Positions 39,944-46,106 are shown, numbered from the stretch's first letter. The stretch: DNA of 46,106 nucleotides from a virus (IMGVR_UViG_2939127364_000005), one strand, 5' to 3'. Notes: generated from the letters alone by a model not told the origin. Program-made: numbers and translations.

Positions 39944-40108
39944 ATGCAATATGCCATTGCAGGGTGGCCTGTTGCTGGCTGCCCTTCCGAATCTTTACTT
40001 GAACGAATCACCCGTAAATTACGTGACGGATGGAAACGCCTTATCGACATACTTAATCAGCCAGGAGTCCCAAAGAATGGATCAAACACTTATGGCTATC
40101 CAGACTAA
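39944..40108 (+). CDS. cIII: cIII (54 aa from MQYAIAGWPVAG), FtsH inhibitor
   Basis: [54 protein letters not shown] matches lambda cIII as recalled. Confidence 0.9.
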   Translation: MQYAIAGWPVAGCPSESLLERITRKLRDGWKRLIDILNQPGVPKNGSNTYGYPD

Positions 40109-40220
40109 ATTCACTATCGCCACTTTTATTGGCGATGAAAAGATGTTTCGTGAAGCCGTCGACGCTTATAAAAAATGGATATTAATGCTGAAACTGAGAT
40201 CAAGCAAAAGCATTCACTAA
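40077..40220 (+). CDS. kil: Kil (47 aa from [10 protein letters not shown]), host-killing FtsZ inhibitor
   Basis: [47 protein letters not shown] matches lambda Kil as recalled. Confidence 0.85.
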
Positions 40221-40591
40221 CCCCCTTTCCTGTTTTCCTAATCAGCCTGGCATTTCGCGGGCGATATTTTCACAGCTATTTCAGGAGTTCAGCCATGAAC
40301 GCTTATTACATTCAGGATCGTCTTGAGGCTCAGAGCTGGGCGCGTCACTACCAGCAGATCGCCCGTGAAGAGAAAGAGGCAGAACTGGCAGACGACATGG
40401 AAAAAGGCCTGCCCCAGCACCTGTTTGAATCGCTATGCATCGATCATTTGCAACGCCACGGGGCCAGCAAAAAAGCCATTACCCGTGCGTTTGATGACGA
40501 TGTTGAGTTTCAGGAGCGCATGGCAGAACACATCCGGTACATGGTTGAAACCATTGCTCACCATCAGGTTGATATTGATTCAGAGGTATAA
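40175..40591 (+). CDS. gam: Gam (138 aa), RecBCD inhibitor
   Basis: Matches lambda Gam as recalled. Confidence 0.9.
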
Positions 40592-40596
40592 AACGG

Positions 40597-41382
40597 ATGA
40601 GTACAGCACTCGCAACGCTGGCTGGGAAGCTGGCTGAACGTGTCGGCATGGATTCTGTCGACCCACAGGAACTGATCACCACTCTTCGCCAGACGGCATT
40701 TAAAGGCGATGCCAGCGATGCGCAGTTCATCGCATTGTTGATCGTCGCCAACCAGTACGGCCTTAATCCGTGGACGAAAGAAATTTACGCCTTCCCTGAT
40801 AAGCAGAACGGCATCGTTCCGGTGGTGGGCGTTGATGGCTGGTCCCGCATCATCAATGAAAACCAGCAGTTTGATGGCATGGACTTTGAGCAGGACAATG
40901 AATCCTGCACATGCCGGATTTACCGCAAGGACCGTAATCATCCGATCTGCGTTACCGAGTGGATGGATGAATGCCGCCGCGAACCATTCAAAACCCGCGA
41001 AGGCAGAGAAATCACGGGGCCGTGGCAGTCGCATCCCAAACGGATGTTACGTCATAAAGCCATGATTCAGTGTGCCCGTCTGGCCTTCGGATTTGCTGGT
41101 ATCTATGACAAGGATGAAGCCGAGCGCATTGTCGAAAATACCGCATACACTGCAGAACGTCAGCCGGAACGCGACATCACTCCGGTTAACGATGAAACCA
41201 TGCAGGAGATTAACACTCTGCTGATTGCCCTGGACAAAACATGGGATGACGACTTATTGCCGCTCTGTTCCCAGATATTTCGCCGCGACATTCGCGCATC
41301 GTCAGAACTGACACAGGCCGAAGCAGTGAAAGCTCTTGGATTCCTGAAACAGAAAGCCTCTGAACAGAAGGTGGCTGCATGA
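40597..41382 (+). CDS. bet: Bet (261 aa), single-strand annealing recombinase
   Basis: Matches lambda Bet as recalled. Confidence 0.9.
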
Positions 41383-42059
41383 CACCGGACATTATCCTGC
41401 AGCGTACCGGGATCGACGTGAGAGCTGTCGAACAGGGGGATGATGCGTGGCACAAATTACGGCTCGGCGTCATCACCGCTTCAGAAGTTCACAATGTGAT
41501 AGCAAAACCCCGCTCCGGAAAGAAATGGCCTGACATGAAAATGTCCTACTTCCACACCCTGCTTGCCGAGGTTTGCACCGGTGTGGCTCCGGAAGTTAAC
41601 GCTAAGGCGCTGGCCTGGGGAAAACAGTACGAGAACGACGCCAGAGCCCTCTTTGAGTTCACTTCCGGCGTGAATGTTACTGAATCCCCGATCATCTATC
41701 GCGACGAAAGTATGCGCACCGCCTGCTCTCCCGATGGTTTATGCAGTGACGGCAATGGCCTTGAACTGAAATGCCCGTTTACCTCACGGGATTTCATGAA
41801 GTTCCGGCTCGGTGGTTTCGAGGCCATAAAATCGGCTTACATGGCCCAGGTGCAGTACAGCATGTGGGTGACACGAAAAGATGCCTGGTACTTTGCCAAC
41901 TATGACCCGCGTATGAAGCGTGAAGGCCTGCATTATGTCGTGATTGAGCGGGATGAAAAGTACATGGCGAGTTTTGACGAGATGGTGCCGGAGTTCATCG
42001 AAAAAATGGACGAGGCACTGGCTGAAATTGGTTTTGTATTTGGGGAGCAATGGCGATGA
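41379..42059 (+). CDS. exo: Exo (226 aa), 5'-3' exonuclease
   Basis: Matches lambda Exo as recalled. Confidence 0.9.
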
Positions 42060-42238
42060 AGCATCCTCACGATAATATCCGGGTAGGCGCGATCACTTTC
42101 GTCTACTCCGTTACAAAGCGAGGCTGGGTATTTCCCGGCCTTTCTGTTATCCGAAATCCCCTGAAAGCACAGCGGCTGGCTGAGGAGATAAATAATAAAC
42201 GGGGAGCTGTATGCACAAAGCATCTCCCGTTGAGTTAA
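42050..42238 (+). CDS. Lambda orf60a-like small protein
   Basis: Position immediately after exo and size match lambda orf60a. Confidence 0.7.
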
Positions 42239-42402
42239 GAACGAGTATCGAGATGGCACATAGCCTCGCTCAAATTGGAGTCAGGTTTGTGCCAATTCCA
42301 GTAGAAACAGACGAAGAATTTCATACGTTAGCCGCATCCCTTTCACAAAAGCTGGAAATGATGGTGGCGAAAGCAGAAGCAGATGAGAGAGACCAGGTAT
42401 GA
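42211..42402 (+). CDS. Lambda orf63-like small protein
   Basis: Position and size match lambda orf63. Confidence 0.7.
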   Translation: MHKASPVELRTSIEMAHSLAQIGVRFVPIPVETDEEFHTLAASLSQKLEMMVAKAEADERDQV

Positions 42403-42478
42403 CAACCACTGAATGCATTTTTCTGGTAGCGGGCTTCATATTCTGTGTGCTTATGCTTGCCGACATGGGACTTGTTCA

Positions 42479-42694
42479 ATGACACCTCAGCAAGAAAACG
42501 CCCTTCGCAGCATTGCCCGTCAGGCTAATTCTGAAATCAAAAAAGCCAGACAGCAGTTTCCGGATAAAAACGTCGATGACATTTGCCGTAGCGTACTGAA
42601 GAAGCACCGCGAAACGGTAACGCTGATGGGATTCACACCGACTCATTTAAGTCTGGCAATCGGTATGTTAAACGGCGCCTTTAAGGAACGGTGA
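42479..42694 (+). CDS. Lambda orf61-like small protein (start uncertain)
   Basis: Position matches lambda orf61; start taken at MTPQQENAL. Confidence 0.6.
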   Translation: MTPQQENALRSIARQANSEIKKARQQFPDKNVDDICRSVLKKHRETVTLMGFTPTHLSLAIGMLNGAFKER

Positions 42695-42792
42695 ACATGA
42701 AAAGCAAAATCCTCAGGGAGCTACAGGCTCCTTTTTTATTGTTCGCATTCACCCTCAAGCGTATTAACCAACAATTCAGGGATTAATGAAAG

Positions 42793-43011
42793 ATGGCAGA
42801 CATCATTGATTCAGCATCAGAAATTGAAGAATTACAGCGCAACACAGCAATAAAAATGCGCCGCCCGAACCACCAAGCTATATCTGCCACTCATTGTTGT
42901 GAGTGTGGCGATCCGATAGATGAACGAAGACGACTGGCCGTTCAGGGTTGTCGGACTTGTGCAAGTTGCCAGGAGGAGATCGAACTTAAGAACAAACAAT
43001 GGGGATTGTGA
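42793..43011 (+). CDS. TraR/DksA-family C4 zinc-finger protein (72 aa), at the position of lambda ea22
   Basis: CxxC-x17-CxxC arrangement (CECG...CASC) typical of TraR/DksA-type zinc fingers. Confidence 0.65.
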   Translation: MADIIDSASEIEELQRNTAIKMRRPNHQAISATHCCECGDPIDERRRLAVQGCRTCASCQEEIELKNKQWGL

Positions 43012-43057
43012 TGGCCTCAAAGCAGCAAATTTCAACATCACCAACTGAGGTGTAAAA

Positions 43058-43336
43058 ATGTTCAGAATCATTTTTCCTAACACCTGGTACGTCGACCACC
43101 ACGGCACTCCCTGCAAAATCCTGCGTTCTACCCACAACAAAGTTCACTACATCCGAAAAGGCAGAACATGTATCGCCAGCATGTTCCGCTTTAATCATGA
43201 CTTTGAACCTGTGAATAAAGCTGATGCAGATCGGATAGCAGAAGAGATCGAAACAGCAGAACACATTAAGAAGTTACGTGACATGCGTTCAAAAAGCAGA
43301 GGTAATCATGGAATCATACAGCCTCACACTCGATGA
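43058..43336 (+). CDS. Hypothetical protein (92 aa), at the position and of the size of lambda ea8.5
   Basis: Positional and length correspondence only; sequence not recognised. Confidence 0.45.
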   Translation: MFRIIFPNTWYVDHHGTPCKILRSTHNKVHYIRKGRTCIASMFRFNHDFEPVNKADADRIAEEIETAEHIKKLRDMRSKSRGNHGIIQPHTR

Positions 43337-43421
43337 GGCCTGTCAGTTTCTCAAGATATCCAGACCTACCATCGCCGCATCAATGCGGCTTTTTCTTGCG
43401 TGTAATTGCGGAGACTTTGCG

Positions 43422-43640
43422 ATGTACTTGACACTTCAGGAGTGGAACGCACGCCAGCGGCGCCCAAGAAGCCTTGAAACAGTTCGTCGATGGGTACGCG
43501 AGTGCAGGATATTCCCACCACCGATTAAGGACGGAAGAGAGTATTTGTTCCACGAATCAGCGGTAAAGGTTGACTTAAATCGACCAGTAACAGGTAGCCT
43601 TTTGAAGAGGATCAAAAATGGGAAGAAGGCGAAGTCATGA
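43422..43640 (+). CDS. xis: Excisionase Xis (72 aa from MYLTLQEWNARQRRPRSLETVRRW)
   Basis: Matches lambda Xis as recalled. Confidence 0.9.
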   Translation: MYLTLQEWNARQRRPRSLETVRRWVRECRIFPPPIKDGREYLFHESAVKVDLNRPVTGSLLKRIKNGKKAKS

Positions 43641-44688
43641 GCGCCGGGATTTACCCCCTAATCTTTATATAAGAAACAATGGATATTACTGCTACAGGGA
43701 CCCAAGGACGGGTAAAGAGTTTGGATTAGGTCGAGACAGGAGGATAGCAATCACTGAAGCTATACAGGCCAACATTGAGTTATTTTCAGGACACAAACAC
43801 AAGCCTCTGACAGCGAGAATCAACAGTGATAATTCTGTTACGTTACATTCATGGCTTGATCGCTACGAAAAAATCCTCGCCAGCAGAGGAATCAAGCAGA
43901 AGACACTCATAAATTACATGAGCAAAATTAAAGCAATAAGGAGGGGGCTGCCTGATGCTCCACTTGAAGACATCACCACAAAAGAAATTGCGGCAATGCT
44001 CAATGGATACATAGACGAGGGCAAGGCGGCGTCAGCCAAGTTAATCAGATCAACACTGAGCGATGCATTCCGAGAGGCAATAGCTGAAGGCCATATAACA
44101 ACAAACCCGGTCGCTGCCACTCGCGCAGCAAAATCAGAGGTAAGGAGATCAAGACTTACAGCTGATGAATACCTGAAAATTTATCAAGCAGCAGAATCAT
44201 CACCATGTTGGCTTAGACTTGCAATGGAATTGGCTGTTGTTACCGGGCAGCGAGTTGGTGATTTATGCGAAATGAAGTGGTCTGATATCGTAGATGGATA
44301 TCTTTATGTCGAGCAAAGCAAAACAGGCGTAAAAATTGCCATCCCAACAACATTGCATGTTGATGTTCTCGGGATATCAATGAAGGAAACACTTGATAAA
44401 TGCAAAAAGATTCTTGGCGGAGAAACCATAATTGCATCTACTCGTCGTGAACCGCTTTCATCCGGCACAGTATCAAGGTATTTTATGCGCGCACGAAAAG
44501 CATCAGGTCTTTCCTTCGAAGGGGATCCGCCTACCTTTCACGAGTTGCGCAGTTTGTCTGCAAGACTCTATGAGAAGCAGATAAGCGATAAGTTTGCTCA
44601 ACATCTTCTCGGGCATAAGTCGGACACCATGGCATCACAGTATCGTGATGACAGAGGCAGGGAGTGGGACAAAATTGAAATCAAATAA
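43618..44688 (+). CDS. int: Integrase Int (356 aa, tyrosine recombinase)
   Basis: MGRRRSHERRDLPPNLYIRNNGYYCYRDPRTGKEFGLGRDRRIAITEAIQ... matches lambda Int as recalled. Confidence 0.9.
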   Translation: MGRRRSHERRDLPPNLYIRNNGYYCYRDPRTGKEFGLGRDRRIAITEAIQANIELFSGHKHKPLTARINSDNSVTLHSWLDRYEKILASRGIKQKTLINYMSKIKAIRRGLPDAPLEDITTKEIAAMLNGYIDEGKAASAKLIRSTLSDAFREAIAEGHITTNPVAATRAAKSEVRRSRLTADEYLKIYQAAESSPCWLRLAMELAVVTGQRVGDLCEMKWSDIVDGYLYVEQSKTGVKIAIPTTLHVDVLGISMKETLDKCKKILGGETIIASTRREPLSSGTVSRYFMRARKASGLSFEGDPPTFHELRSLSARLYEKQISDKFAQHLLGHKSDTMASQYRDDRGREWDKIEIK

Positions 44689-44776
44689 TGATTTTATTTT
44701 GACTGATAGTGACCTGTTCGTTGCAACAAATTGATAAGCAATGCTTTTTTATAATGCCAACTTAGTATAAAAAAGC
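44689..44776. other. Prophage-host junction: lambda attP P' arm followed by the 15-bp att core (complement of GCTTTTTTATACTAA at 44762-44776), then host DNA
   Basis: Sequence is the reverse complement of the lambda P' arm and core as recalled; flanking gene is ybhC. Confidence 0.85.
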
Positions 44777-44822
44777 AGGCTTCAACGGATTCATTTTTCT
44801 ATTTCATAGCCCGGAGCAACCT

Positions 44823-46106
44823 GTGAACACATTTTCAGTTTCCCGTCTGGCGCTGGCATTGGCTTTTGGCGTGACGCTGACCGCCTGTAGCTCAACCCCG
44901 CCCGATCAACGTCCTTCTGATCAAACCGCGCCTGGTACCTCTTCTCGCCCGATTCTGTCGGCAAAAGAAGCGCAGAATTTCGATGCTCAACACTATTTTG
45001 CATCCCTGACACCAGGTGCTGCAGCGTGGAATCCTTCCCCGATTACCCTGCCTGCGCAACCTGACTTTGTTGTCGGCCCGGCGGGCACTCAAGGTGTAAC
45101 GCATACCACGATTCAGGCGGCGGTAGATGCGGCAATTATCAAGCGTACCAACAAGCGCCAGTATATTGCCGTGATGCCTGGTGAGTATCAGGGAACGGTA
45201 TATGTCCCTGCCGCTCCGGGTGGAATTACTCTGTACGGTACAGGTGAAAAACCGATTGATGTGAAGATTGGGCTTTCCCTTGATGGTGGCATGAGCCCTG
45301 CCGACTGGCGTCACGACGTCAACCCGCGCGGCAAATATATGCCAGGTAAACCAGCGTGGTATATGTACGATAGCTGCCAGAGCAAACGCAGCGACAGTAT
45401 CGGTGTTCTCTGCTCTGCGGTCTTCTGGTCACAAAACAATGGCCTGCAACTGCAAAATCTGACCATCGAAAACACGCTGGGCGATAGCGTAGATGCAGGT
45501 AACCATCCGGCGGTGGCACTGCGTACTGATGGTGACCAGGTACAGATTAACAACGTTAACATTCTCGGTCGTCAGAACACCTTCTTTGTCACCAACAGCG
45601 GTGTGCAGAACCGTCTGGAAACGAATCGTCAGCCGCGTACGCTGGTGACCAACAGCTACATTGAAGGGGATGTGGATATCGTTTCTGGTCGCGGCGCAGT
45701 GGTGTTCGATAACACCGAATTCCGCGTGGTGAACTCACGTACTCAGCAAGAAGCGTATGTGTTTGCACCGGCTACGCTGTCCAACATTTACTACGGTTTC
45801 CTCGCCGTAAACAGCCGTTTCAATGCTTTCGGTGATGGTGTGGCGCAACTGGGCCGCTCGCTGGATGTTGATGCCAATACCAACGGTCAGGTGGTGATCC
45901 GTGATAGCGCCATCAACGAAGGTTTTAACACGGCTAAACCGTGGGCCGATGCGGTGATCTCTAATCGTCCGTTTGCGGGTAATACCGGCAGCGTAGATGA
46001 TAACGACGAAATACAGCGCAATCTGAATGACACTAACTACAACCGCATGTGGGAATACAATAACCGCGGCGTGGGTAGTAAAGTGGTTGCAGAGGCGAAG
46101 AAGTAA
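44823..46106 (+). CDS. ybhC: Host gene: YbhC, pectinesterase-family outer-membrane lipoprotein (427 aa, GTG start, lipobox LTAC)
   Basis: Matches E. coli YbhC as recalled; ybhC flanks att-lambda in E. coli. Confidence 0.85.
   Translation: MNTFSVSRLALALAFGVTLTACSSTPPDQRPSDQTAPGTSSRPILSAKEAQNFDAQHYFASLTPGAAAWNPSPITLPAQPDFVVGPAGTQGVTHTTIQAAVDAAIIKRTNKRQYIAVMPGEYQGTVYVPAAPGGITLYGTGEKPIDVKIGLSLDGGMSPADWRHDVNPRGKYMPGKPAWYMYDSCQSKRSDSIGVLCSAVFWSQNNGLQLQNLTIENTLGDSVDAGNHPAVALRTDGDQVQINNVNILGRQNTFFVTNSGVQNRLETNRQPRTLVTNSYIEGDVDIVSGRGAVVFDNTEFRVVNSRTQQEAYVFAPATLSNIYYGFLAVNSRFNAFGDGVAQLGRSLDVDANTNGQVVIRDSAINEGFNTAKPWADAVISNRPFAGNTGSVDDNDEIQRNLNDTNYNRMWEYNNRGVGSKVVAEAKK

Follow-up and report, generated by a model that had tools for sequence, protein, structure and literature searches.

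The window analysed here is a 46,106-nucleotide (nt) stretch of viral DNA (IMGVR_UViG_2939127364_000005), given as one strand. Between its homologs of the phage lambda genes orf61 and xis lie two small open reading frames (ORFs) of 72 and 92 amino acids (aa), both on the plus strand and both where an earlier note, made from the sequence alone, had put them (Table 1). That note spanned exactly the DNA between the start codon of the first ORF and the stop codon of the second; the early-left operon that holds the two extends over 40.1-44.7 kb of the window. The 72-aa ORF is, on sequence grounds, the ortholog of orf73, a resident gene of the lambda exo-xis block. The 92-aa ORF belongs to the DUF4222 family. 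Very probably, the locus as a whole consists of this orf73 ortholog and a DUF4222/RgdR-family gene brought in by a segment of the type seen in phage ev243, together in an early operon transcribed from pL. Gene identity, family membership, mosaic junctions, purifying selection and gene order relative to the TraR-like gene can all be read from the DNA, and we infer any biochemical activity of the two products.

The 72-aa gene and lambda orf73

The window is collinear with lambda from exo through orf73, and positions 41900-42988 are 97.2% identical to lambda by blastn. The 72-aa protein is 90% identical to lambda Orf73, the product of a 73-aa ORF between orf61 and ea22 (L001 1295-1516). The lambda RefSeq record NC_001416 has no coding sequence between orf61 and ea22, leaving orf73 unannotated. 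The literature counts orf73 among the genes of the conserved exo-xis block (PMC8614690).

The earlier note had described the 72-aa product as carrying a CxxC-x17-CxxC zinc finger of the TraR/DksA type, and that spacing aligns residue for residue with TraR of the F plasmid. The finger, C35-x2-C38-x17-C56-x2-C59, falls column for column on TraR C37, C40, C58 and C61. A profile search, also proposed in that note, placed the protein above the cutoff of Pfam zf-dskA_traR (PF01258; 35.2 bits against 24.9, E 1.3e-8), and it matched PHROG 54, 'DksA-like zinc-finger protein', at 1.7e-25. Sequence matches in the PDB were YbiI (7.7e-6) and, over its full length, TraR (7.9e-5 by phmmer), the latter as chains of the RNA polymerase (RNAP) complexes 5w1s and 6n57. 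In RefSeq the identical protein carries the name 'TraR/DksA family transcriptional regulator'.

The N-terminus, MADIIDSA, carries the DxxDxA motif as D3, D6 and A8. Across 38 homologs D6 and A8 are invariant, D3, R46 and R47 are nearly invariant, and the four zinc cysteines are conserved. Their counterparts R46 and R47 fall on R48 and R49 of TraR, basic residues that touch the rim helices and beta'Si3 of RNAP. Two cysteines beyond the C4 finger, making six in total, are present in lambda Orf73 as well. AlphaFold2 predicted a helix over residues 3-23, a central domain and a C-terminal helix over residues 57-69. When that model was searched with Foldseek, the top matches all belonged to the DksA/TraR family (YbiI, DksA in RNAP, DksA2), none of them below E 1e-3, and TraR itself was not among the matches.

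With lambda Orf73 the window protein thus shares its position after orf61 in the pL operon, the DxxDxA motif, the six cysteines and an ERRRL counterpart of the TraR ExxRK; it differs in length (72 against 73 aa), in L25P and V49A, and in its last ~10 residues. F-plasmid TraR (5W1S, 6N57) is of the same length class and has the same CxxC-x17-CxxC, DxxDxA and arginine equivalents of R48/R49, with a three-element architecture that the moderate-confidence model also predicts for the window protein. The pairwise match between the two is weak (E 7.9e-5), however, the window protein has the two extra cysteines, and TraR comes from the tra operon rather than from an early phage operon.

The function of the lambda protein has been published. 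Work by Gopalkrishnan et al. (mBio 2022, PMC9239242) shows that purified lambda Orf73 binds RNAP and inhibits rRNA and ribosomal-protein promoters at concentrations below those of DksA; the protein also complements a dksA-null strain. In the same study, Orf73 expressed from pL slowed host growth, and the protein raised phage yield 3-4 fold, a gain abolished by D3A/D6A; with these substitutions or with the gene deleted, yield fell 3-4 fold. Unlike TraR, Orf73 had at best a weak activating effect on the three host promoters tested, and the tested lambda lytic promoters were unaffected. The role of the DxxDxA motif, which reaches the RNAP active-site region, is documented there too (PMC9239242). 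The suggestion in the earlier note that the TraR-like product may bind RNAP and modulate host transcription early in infection agrees, by analogy, with these results on a 90%-identical protein. This functional guess is right but already published, and the reporter experiment suggested with it has in essence been done for the ortholog.

Our proposal for the window protein follows the lambda and F-plasmid precedents. The orf73-DUF4222 region is the distal part of the exo-xis block and would be transcribed early from pL. By analogy with lambda Orf73 and TraR, the ~8-kDa Orf73-like protein would insert its N-terminal helix, with DxxDxA at the tip, into the RNAP secondary channel, and its zinc-finger domain and C-terminal helix would touch the channel rim, beta'Si3 and betaSi1. 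It would inhibit rRNA and ribosomal-protein promoters without ppGpp, leading to slower host growth and more phage. The protein may act early after induction or infection, shutting down synthesis of the translation machinery in favour of phage production.

The DUF4222 gene and its replacement segment

In the 3' end of orf73 the resemblance to lambda is interrupted. The window has ~385-395 bp where lambda has ~1.29 kb comprising the last codons of orf73, ea22, ea8.5 and orf55 (lambdap35); the latter three genes are absent from the window. At the left joint, the last position still identical to lambda is 42977, within codon 62 of orf73 (blastn homology continues through 42988). At the right joint, ev243-type sequence runs to 43370 and lambda-type sequence, 94.8% identical, is found again from 43374. 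The intervening segment is 97.3% identical to phage ev243, and phage 2G7b also matches. In ev243 and 2G7b it is followed by an HTH_17-type excisionase of 126-133 aa and a different integrase. These joints suggest that ev243-type DNA recombined into the 3' end of orf73 and just upstream of a lambda-type xis, displacing ea22, ea8.5 and orf55.

The sole gene in the replacement segment is the DUF4222 gene. Lambda Ea22, Ea8.5 and Orf55 resemble its product in that they, too, come from early accessory genes transcribed from pL in the slot between orf73 and xis, and are positional analogues. A blastp comparison of the DUF4222 protein with these three (E up to 10) gave no similarity; they are not homologs.

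The earlier note had called the 92-aa ORF one of unknown function; it is a member of Pfam DUF4222 rather than an orphan. The match to PF13973 reaches 69.4 bits against a cutoff of 27 (E 1.9e-19, residues 3-53), and that to PHROG 285 reaches 3.2e-38. NCBIfam holds no model for DUF4222. The protein is basic, with an isoelectric point (pI) of 9.9, and a Shine-Dalgarno sequence, GAGGTG, lies 7 nt upstream of ATG 43058. When the ORF was compared with eight Enterobacteriaceae homologs (Enterobacter and Citrobacter), the ratio of nonsynonymous to synonymous changes (pN/pS) was 0.22-0.29 in the sense frame. Antisense frame 1 was the only other low one (0.31-0.47), and the remaining four frames gave 1.1-3.4. 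By this sequence signature, the ORF is a real DUF4222 gene under purifying selection. Since the N-terminus (first 21 residues) is conserved across genera, ATG 43058 is favoured as the start.

Annotation of this DNA elsewhere differs. On identical DNA (NZ_CP062895), RefSeq has an antisense hypothetical protein at 42986-43198 (-) and starts the DUF4222 gene at CTG 43121. Two antisense ORFs, 42986-43264 and 42832-43140, were considered as genes and rejected; neither has a PHROG match, and pN/pS for 42986-43264 is 1.1-1.7.

AlphaFold2 modelled the DUF4222 protein with a predicted local distance difference test score (pLDDT) of 84.8, as a five-stranded barrel (residues 10-52), a long helix (54-82) and a disordered tail. 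In this model the fold class, a small Tudor/SH3-like barrel with a long amphipathic C-terminal helix, is clear, whereas no specific functional analogy stands out. The protein is not a zinc protein, because its two cysteines are not conserved in distant members. A sequence search of the PDB gave no match to it even at E 10. The family is narrow, with 47 representatives at 50% identity among 1.84 billion proteins, and is essentially confined to Enterobacteriaceae prophages; relatives occur in 117 phage records. DUF4222 is a known, widespread and functionally obscure family.

The only characterised relative of the window gene is RgdR (ECs1581), a 99-aa protein encoded by a prophage or phage-inducible chromosomal island (PICI) in O-island 51 of E. 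coli O157:H7. RgdR activates LEE1 and type III secretion, and it also represses motility and alters Congo-red binding; its own binding to DNA is weak and non-specific, and it has been proposed to be a co-factor (Flockhart et al. 2012, PMC3378721; PMC10877973, PMC6092414). Such regulation of host genes is known for RgdR and its close orthologs only. The RGD motif of RgdR (residues 20-22, with R20) and K35 were reported to be important for activity. RgdR scores within DUF4222 (82 bits, E 2.1e-23). Both it and the window protein are small and basic (pI 10.1 against 9.9), and both genes belong to early operons of prophage-like elements. RgdR differs in having a 13-residue N-terminal extension and in that rgdR adjoins a primase gene in a PICI-type island. 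In strain Sakai, rgdR (L016 28305-28604, prophage Sp7) overlaps the start of that primase gene. We looked for a TraR-like gene beside rgdR in Sakai Sp7 and did not find one, which weakens the idea of an obligatory TraR-DUF4222 pair. With RgdR as the only analogy, our best guess is that the window DUF4222 protein may be an accessory regulator or adaptor without sequence specificity, changing host gene expression by contacts with other proteins or by weak contacts with DNA.

Phage relatives lie closer. Phi24B vb_24B_1c and its counterparts in ev243, 2G7b, SfI and HK639 are 37-100% identical to the window protein, and their genes likewise occupy the end of the exo-xis block nearest xis, with a TraR-type gene upstream; the difference is that DUF4222 there precedes another xis/int module. 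The Phi24B gene (HM208303, L017, 2501-2752) encodes the 37%-identical DUF4222 protein and is located directly before xis. A text search of the literature for vb_24B_1c found no paper.

Gene order and competing readings

To describe gene order we used 11 loci, taken from contigs of one genome per species and found with the closer family alignment. In at least 9 of the 11, and also in ev243, DUF4222 is preceded on its own strand by a TraR-like gene, either directly or with a single variable gene intervening. The TraR-like ORF of a tenth locus, L007, carries a frameshift and has no zinc finger. Loci L007-L015 (Enterobacter, Citrobacter and Lelliottia) have one variable gene between the TraR-like gene and DUF4222. 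Four loci share a family of ~125-135 aa in this slot, starting MMDYSKLSD or MMDYTGLSD, and others hold different ORFs. Four annotated genes separate the DUF4222 relative of Phi24B from its TraR-type gene, and 1-3 genes may separate DUF4222 from xis. Such conservation of order is consistent with a single early accessory operon; order alone does not show that the DUF4222 protein works together with Orf73 or Xis.

Coverage of the orf73-DUF4222 pair reaches 80% or more in 2177 of the 5426 complete E. coli genomes (~40%), and the exact arrangement with lambda xis/int occurs in 21 of the 5426. As a discovery the locus carries little weight, given that orf73 function is published and that annotations of the pair already exist for ~40% of complete E. 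coli genomes as well as for an isolated phage. DUF4222 is nonetheless a very common prophage early gene, and the barrel-plus-helix model together with its place beside a TraR-like gene gives a testable lead.

The earlier note had both ORFs replacing ea22 and ea8.5. This stands for the DUF4222 gene and its flanks but not for the 72-aa gene, which at 90% identity, and with lambda homology through 42988, is the resident orf73. We see hardly any chance that a new two-gene cassette, TraR-like gene plus orphan, replaced ea22/ea8.5 and added a transcription control that lambda lacks. The reading draws on the real absence of ea22, ea8.5 and orf55, and on a lambda reference annotation without a gene between orf61 and ea22, by which alone the TraR gene looks new. 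It is refuted by the 73-aa ORF, 90% identical, that lambda encodes at the same spot; lambda homology is moreover continuous from exo to codon 61 of orf73, and orf73 is part of the conserved exo-xis block (PMC8614690). The replacement reading likely arose because the lambda reference record lacks orf73, and the standard record misleads annotation-based comparisons in this way. It is also extremely improbable that the 92-aa ORF is not the gene and that either a shorter product from CTG 43121 or the antisense ORF 42986-43198 (-) takes its place. RefSeq PGAP does annotate a 71-aa DUF4222 protein from 43121 with an overlapping minus-strand hypothetical protein, and the record of phage PhiR70_1 annotates no gene at the DUF4222 position. 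However, the first 21 residues are conserved across genera, the Pfam model begins at residue 3, the Shine-Dalgarno sequence before ATG 43058 is strong, and the antisense ORFs are without a PHROG match. The contrast in pN/pS (0.22-0.29 in the sense frame against 1.1-1.7 in the annotated antisense frame) and the conserved N-terminus lead us to regard the RefSeq antisense call as spurious and ATG 43058 as the start.

Two further readings concern what the DUF4222 protein does. In one, it and by extension RgdR would be Tudor-like binders of the host RNAP beta lobe, in the manner of UvrD/PcrA C-terminal domains and CarD, and would cooperate with Orf73. Throughout Enterobacteriaceae prophages DUF4222 adjoins a TraR-like gene or lies a short way from one, and RgdR affects several regulons yet binds DNA only non-specifically, both of which speak for it. 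If it were true, many lambdoid prophages would carry a two-protein module for host transcription takeover, and the unexplained global effects of RgdR on virulence genes of enterohaemorrhagic E. coli would have a mechanism. We consider it unlikely. The UvrD/PcrA Tudor domains and the CarD RNAP-interaction domain are 2-11% identical to the DUF4222 protein in sequence, its resemblance to them is no better than to many other SH3/Tudor/KOW barrels, and neither sequence nor profile similarity connects it with any RNAP-interaction domain family (UvrD/PcrA, CarD/Mfd). Foldseek does not confirm the resemblance, the RgdR island is without an adjoining TraR-like gene, and shared operon order is no proof of a functional link. 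Very unlikely, in our judgement, is a role as an accessory of excision or integration, for example as an excisionase helper translationally coupled to xis. In the ev243-type parent the last 29 nt of the gene overlap the start of the HTH_17-type xis, vb_24B_1c of Phi24B is directly upstream of xis, and some sub-significance Foldseek matches are DNA-binding barrels of recombinases (TnsB, HIV integrase C-terminal domain). Against such a role, 1-3 unrelated genes separate DUF4222 from xis in Enterobacter, Citrobacter and Lelliottia prophages, and rgdR is beside a primase gene in a PICI-like island, far from int. In the window, the gene's neighbours are an unrelated Xis/Int pair of lambda type, and the isolated phage PhiR70_1 nonetheless carries an identical region.

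The explanation we prefer, a resident orf73 ortholog followed by a DUF4222/RgdR-family gene on an ev243-type segment, has evidence to contend with as well. For the Orf73-like protein, the score against NCBIfam TIGR02419 (C4_traR_proteo) is 54.4 bits, under the 59.7-bit cutoff, and the AlphaFold2 model is of moderate confidence (mean pLDDT 66). An earlier study, discussed in PMC9239242, had orf73 reducing phage yield, the opposite effect. The allele departs from lambda Orf73 at 8 positions; L25P and V49A are among them, as is the greater part of the final 10 residues. Its C-terminal tail is EEIELKNKQWGL, compared with EDLELISKQRGSK in lambda Orf73, and these tail differences lie in the C-terminal helix, whose counterpart in TraR contacts betaSi1. 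The tail differs from that of lambda because the mosaic joint falls inside orf73, at codon 62. Both variants are common natural alleles, P25 occurring in one cluster, of 939 members, and the EEIELKNKQWGL tail in two, of 635 and 188. For the DUF4222 protein, Foldseek with its model returned nothing significant, a PWWP domain being best at E 8e-3. RgdR is 24% identical to it (hhalign of the family profile against RgdR gives 81% probability, E 1.3e-5), and the key residues of RgdR are not conserved, RGD aligning with window P7-N8-T9 and K35 with L22. At this identity and without those residues, the RgdR phenotype is not transferable to the window protein. In lambdoid-subfamily members at a greater distance the motif reads RGQ.

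Prophage setting and the chimeric xis frame

The lambda-type xis and int are followed by the host gene ybhC, so the prophage sits at att-lambda. Over its full extent (21000-44750) it is a mosaic, matched best among phages by lambda (70% coverage, 97.2% identity) and mEp332 (68%, 97.7%). PhiR70_1 covers only 53% of 21000-44750, yet is identical around orf73 to int, with 100% identity over 42000-43700.

Table 1. Coordinates of genes and other features in and around the orf73-DUF4222 locus (window positions).
Feature	Coordinates	Strand	Basis or remark
gam	40175-40591	+	lambda-type early-left operon
bet	40597-41382	+	lambda-type early-left operon
exo	41379-42059	+	lambda-type early-left operon
orf60a	42050-42238	+	DUF1317
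Terminator-like hairpin, inside orf60a	42120-42142	+	consensus match only; DNA collinear with lambda
orf63	42211-42402	+	DUF1382
orf61 homolog, intact	42413-42694 (ATG 42413, 93 aa; RefSeq: ATG 42479, 71 aa)	+	PHROG 303, full length, E 8.9e-43
Terminator-like hairpin then T-run, orf61-orf73 spacer	42715-42733	+	consensus scan only; DNA 97% identical to lambda
72-aa ORF, ATG start	42793-43011	+	orf73 ortholog (by sequence)
Mosaic segment, ev243/2G7b type	42978-43373 (about)		blastn against lambda and ev243, junction alignments
92-aa ORF, ATG start	43058-43336	+	DUF4222 gene
Remnant excisionase start, 21 codons, HTH_17/PHROG 2907 type	43308-43370	+	Pfam HTH_17 and PHROG 2907 on N-terminal stretch
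Chimeric 110-aa ORF	43308-43640	+	in frame, own GAGGT ribosome-binding site
GC-rich hairpin then T-run, exactly at right joint	43374-43389	+	terminator-like scan
Lambda-type xis, 72 aa	43422-43640	+	Pfam Exc, 9.1e-40; RefSeq annotates the 72-aa form
int	43618-44688	+	lambda-type
ybhC, host gene	44823 to window end		beyond int

The orf61 homolog is intact in the window. Both the window and ev243 have a run of six A residues (42539-42544) where the lambda reference has seven (L001 about 1040), and this frameshift truncates lambda Orf61 to 61 aa. The truncation has been remarked on before (PMC8614690). PADLOC gave no match for orf61, orf73 or the DUF4222 protein. A sigma-70 promoter scan found none in 42000-43700, and an Rfam scan of 40000-46106 gave no match.

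The hairpin at the right joint has the stem GCCGCA/TGCGGC where lambda has GCCGCC/GGCGGT. The paired changes keep the hairpin, which hints, at the level of sequence comparison, at a conserved structure. It is just upstream of the xis ATG and of TTGC-N6-TTGC (43396-43409), a region that we take, from established lambda knowledge, to be the pI/cII box.

As a consequence of the recombination joint, the start of the foreign excisionase gene reads in frame into lambda-type DNA. The full excisionase gene, of 126-133 aa, is present in ev243 and in two of the loci (L005, L006). In the window, the resulting 110-aa ORF consists of 21 aa of this excisionase, 17 aa from the lambda-type DNA upstream of pI and an intact lambda-type Xis of 72 aa, which keeps its own start and ribosome-binding site. 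Annotations differ accordingly in form, the PhiR70_1 record giving 110 aa and RefSeq 72 aa. The chimeric xis ORF is a clean case of a mosaic joint making a fusion reading frame.

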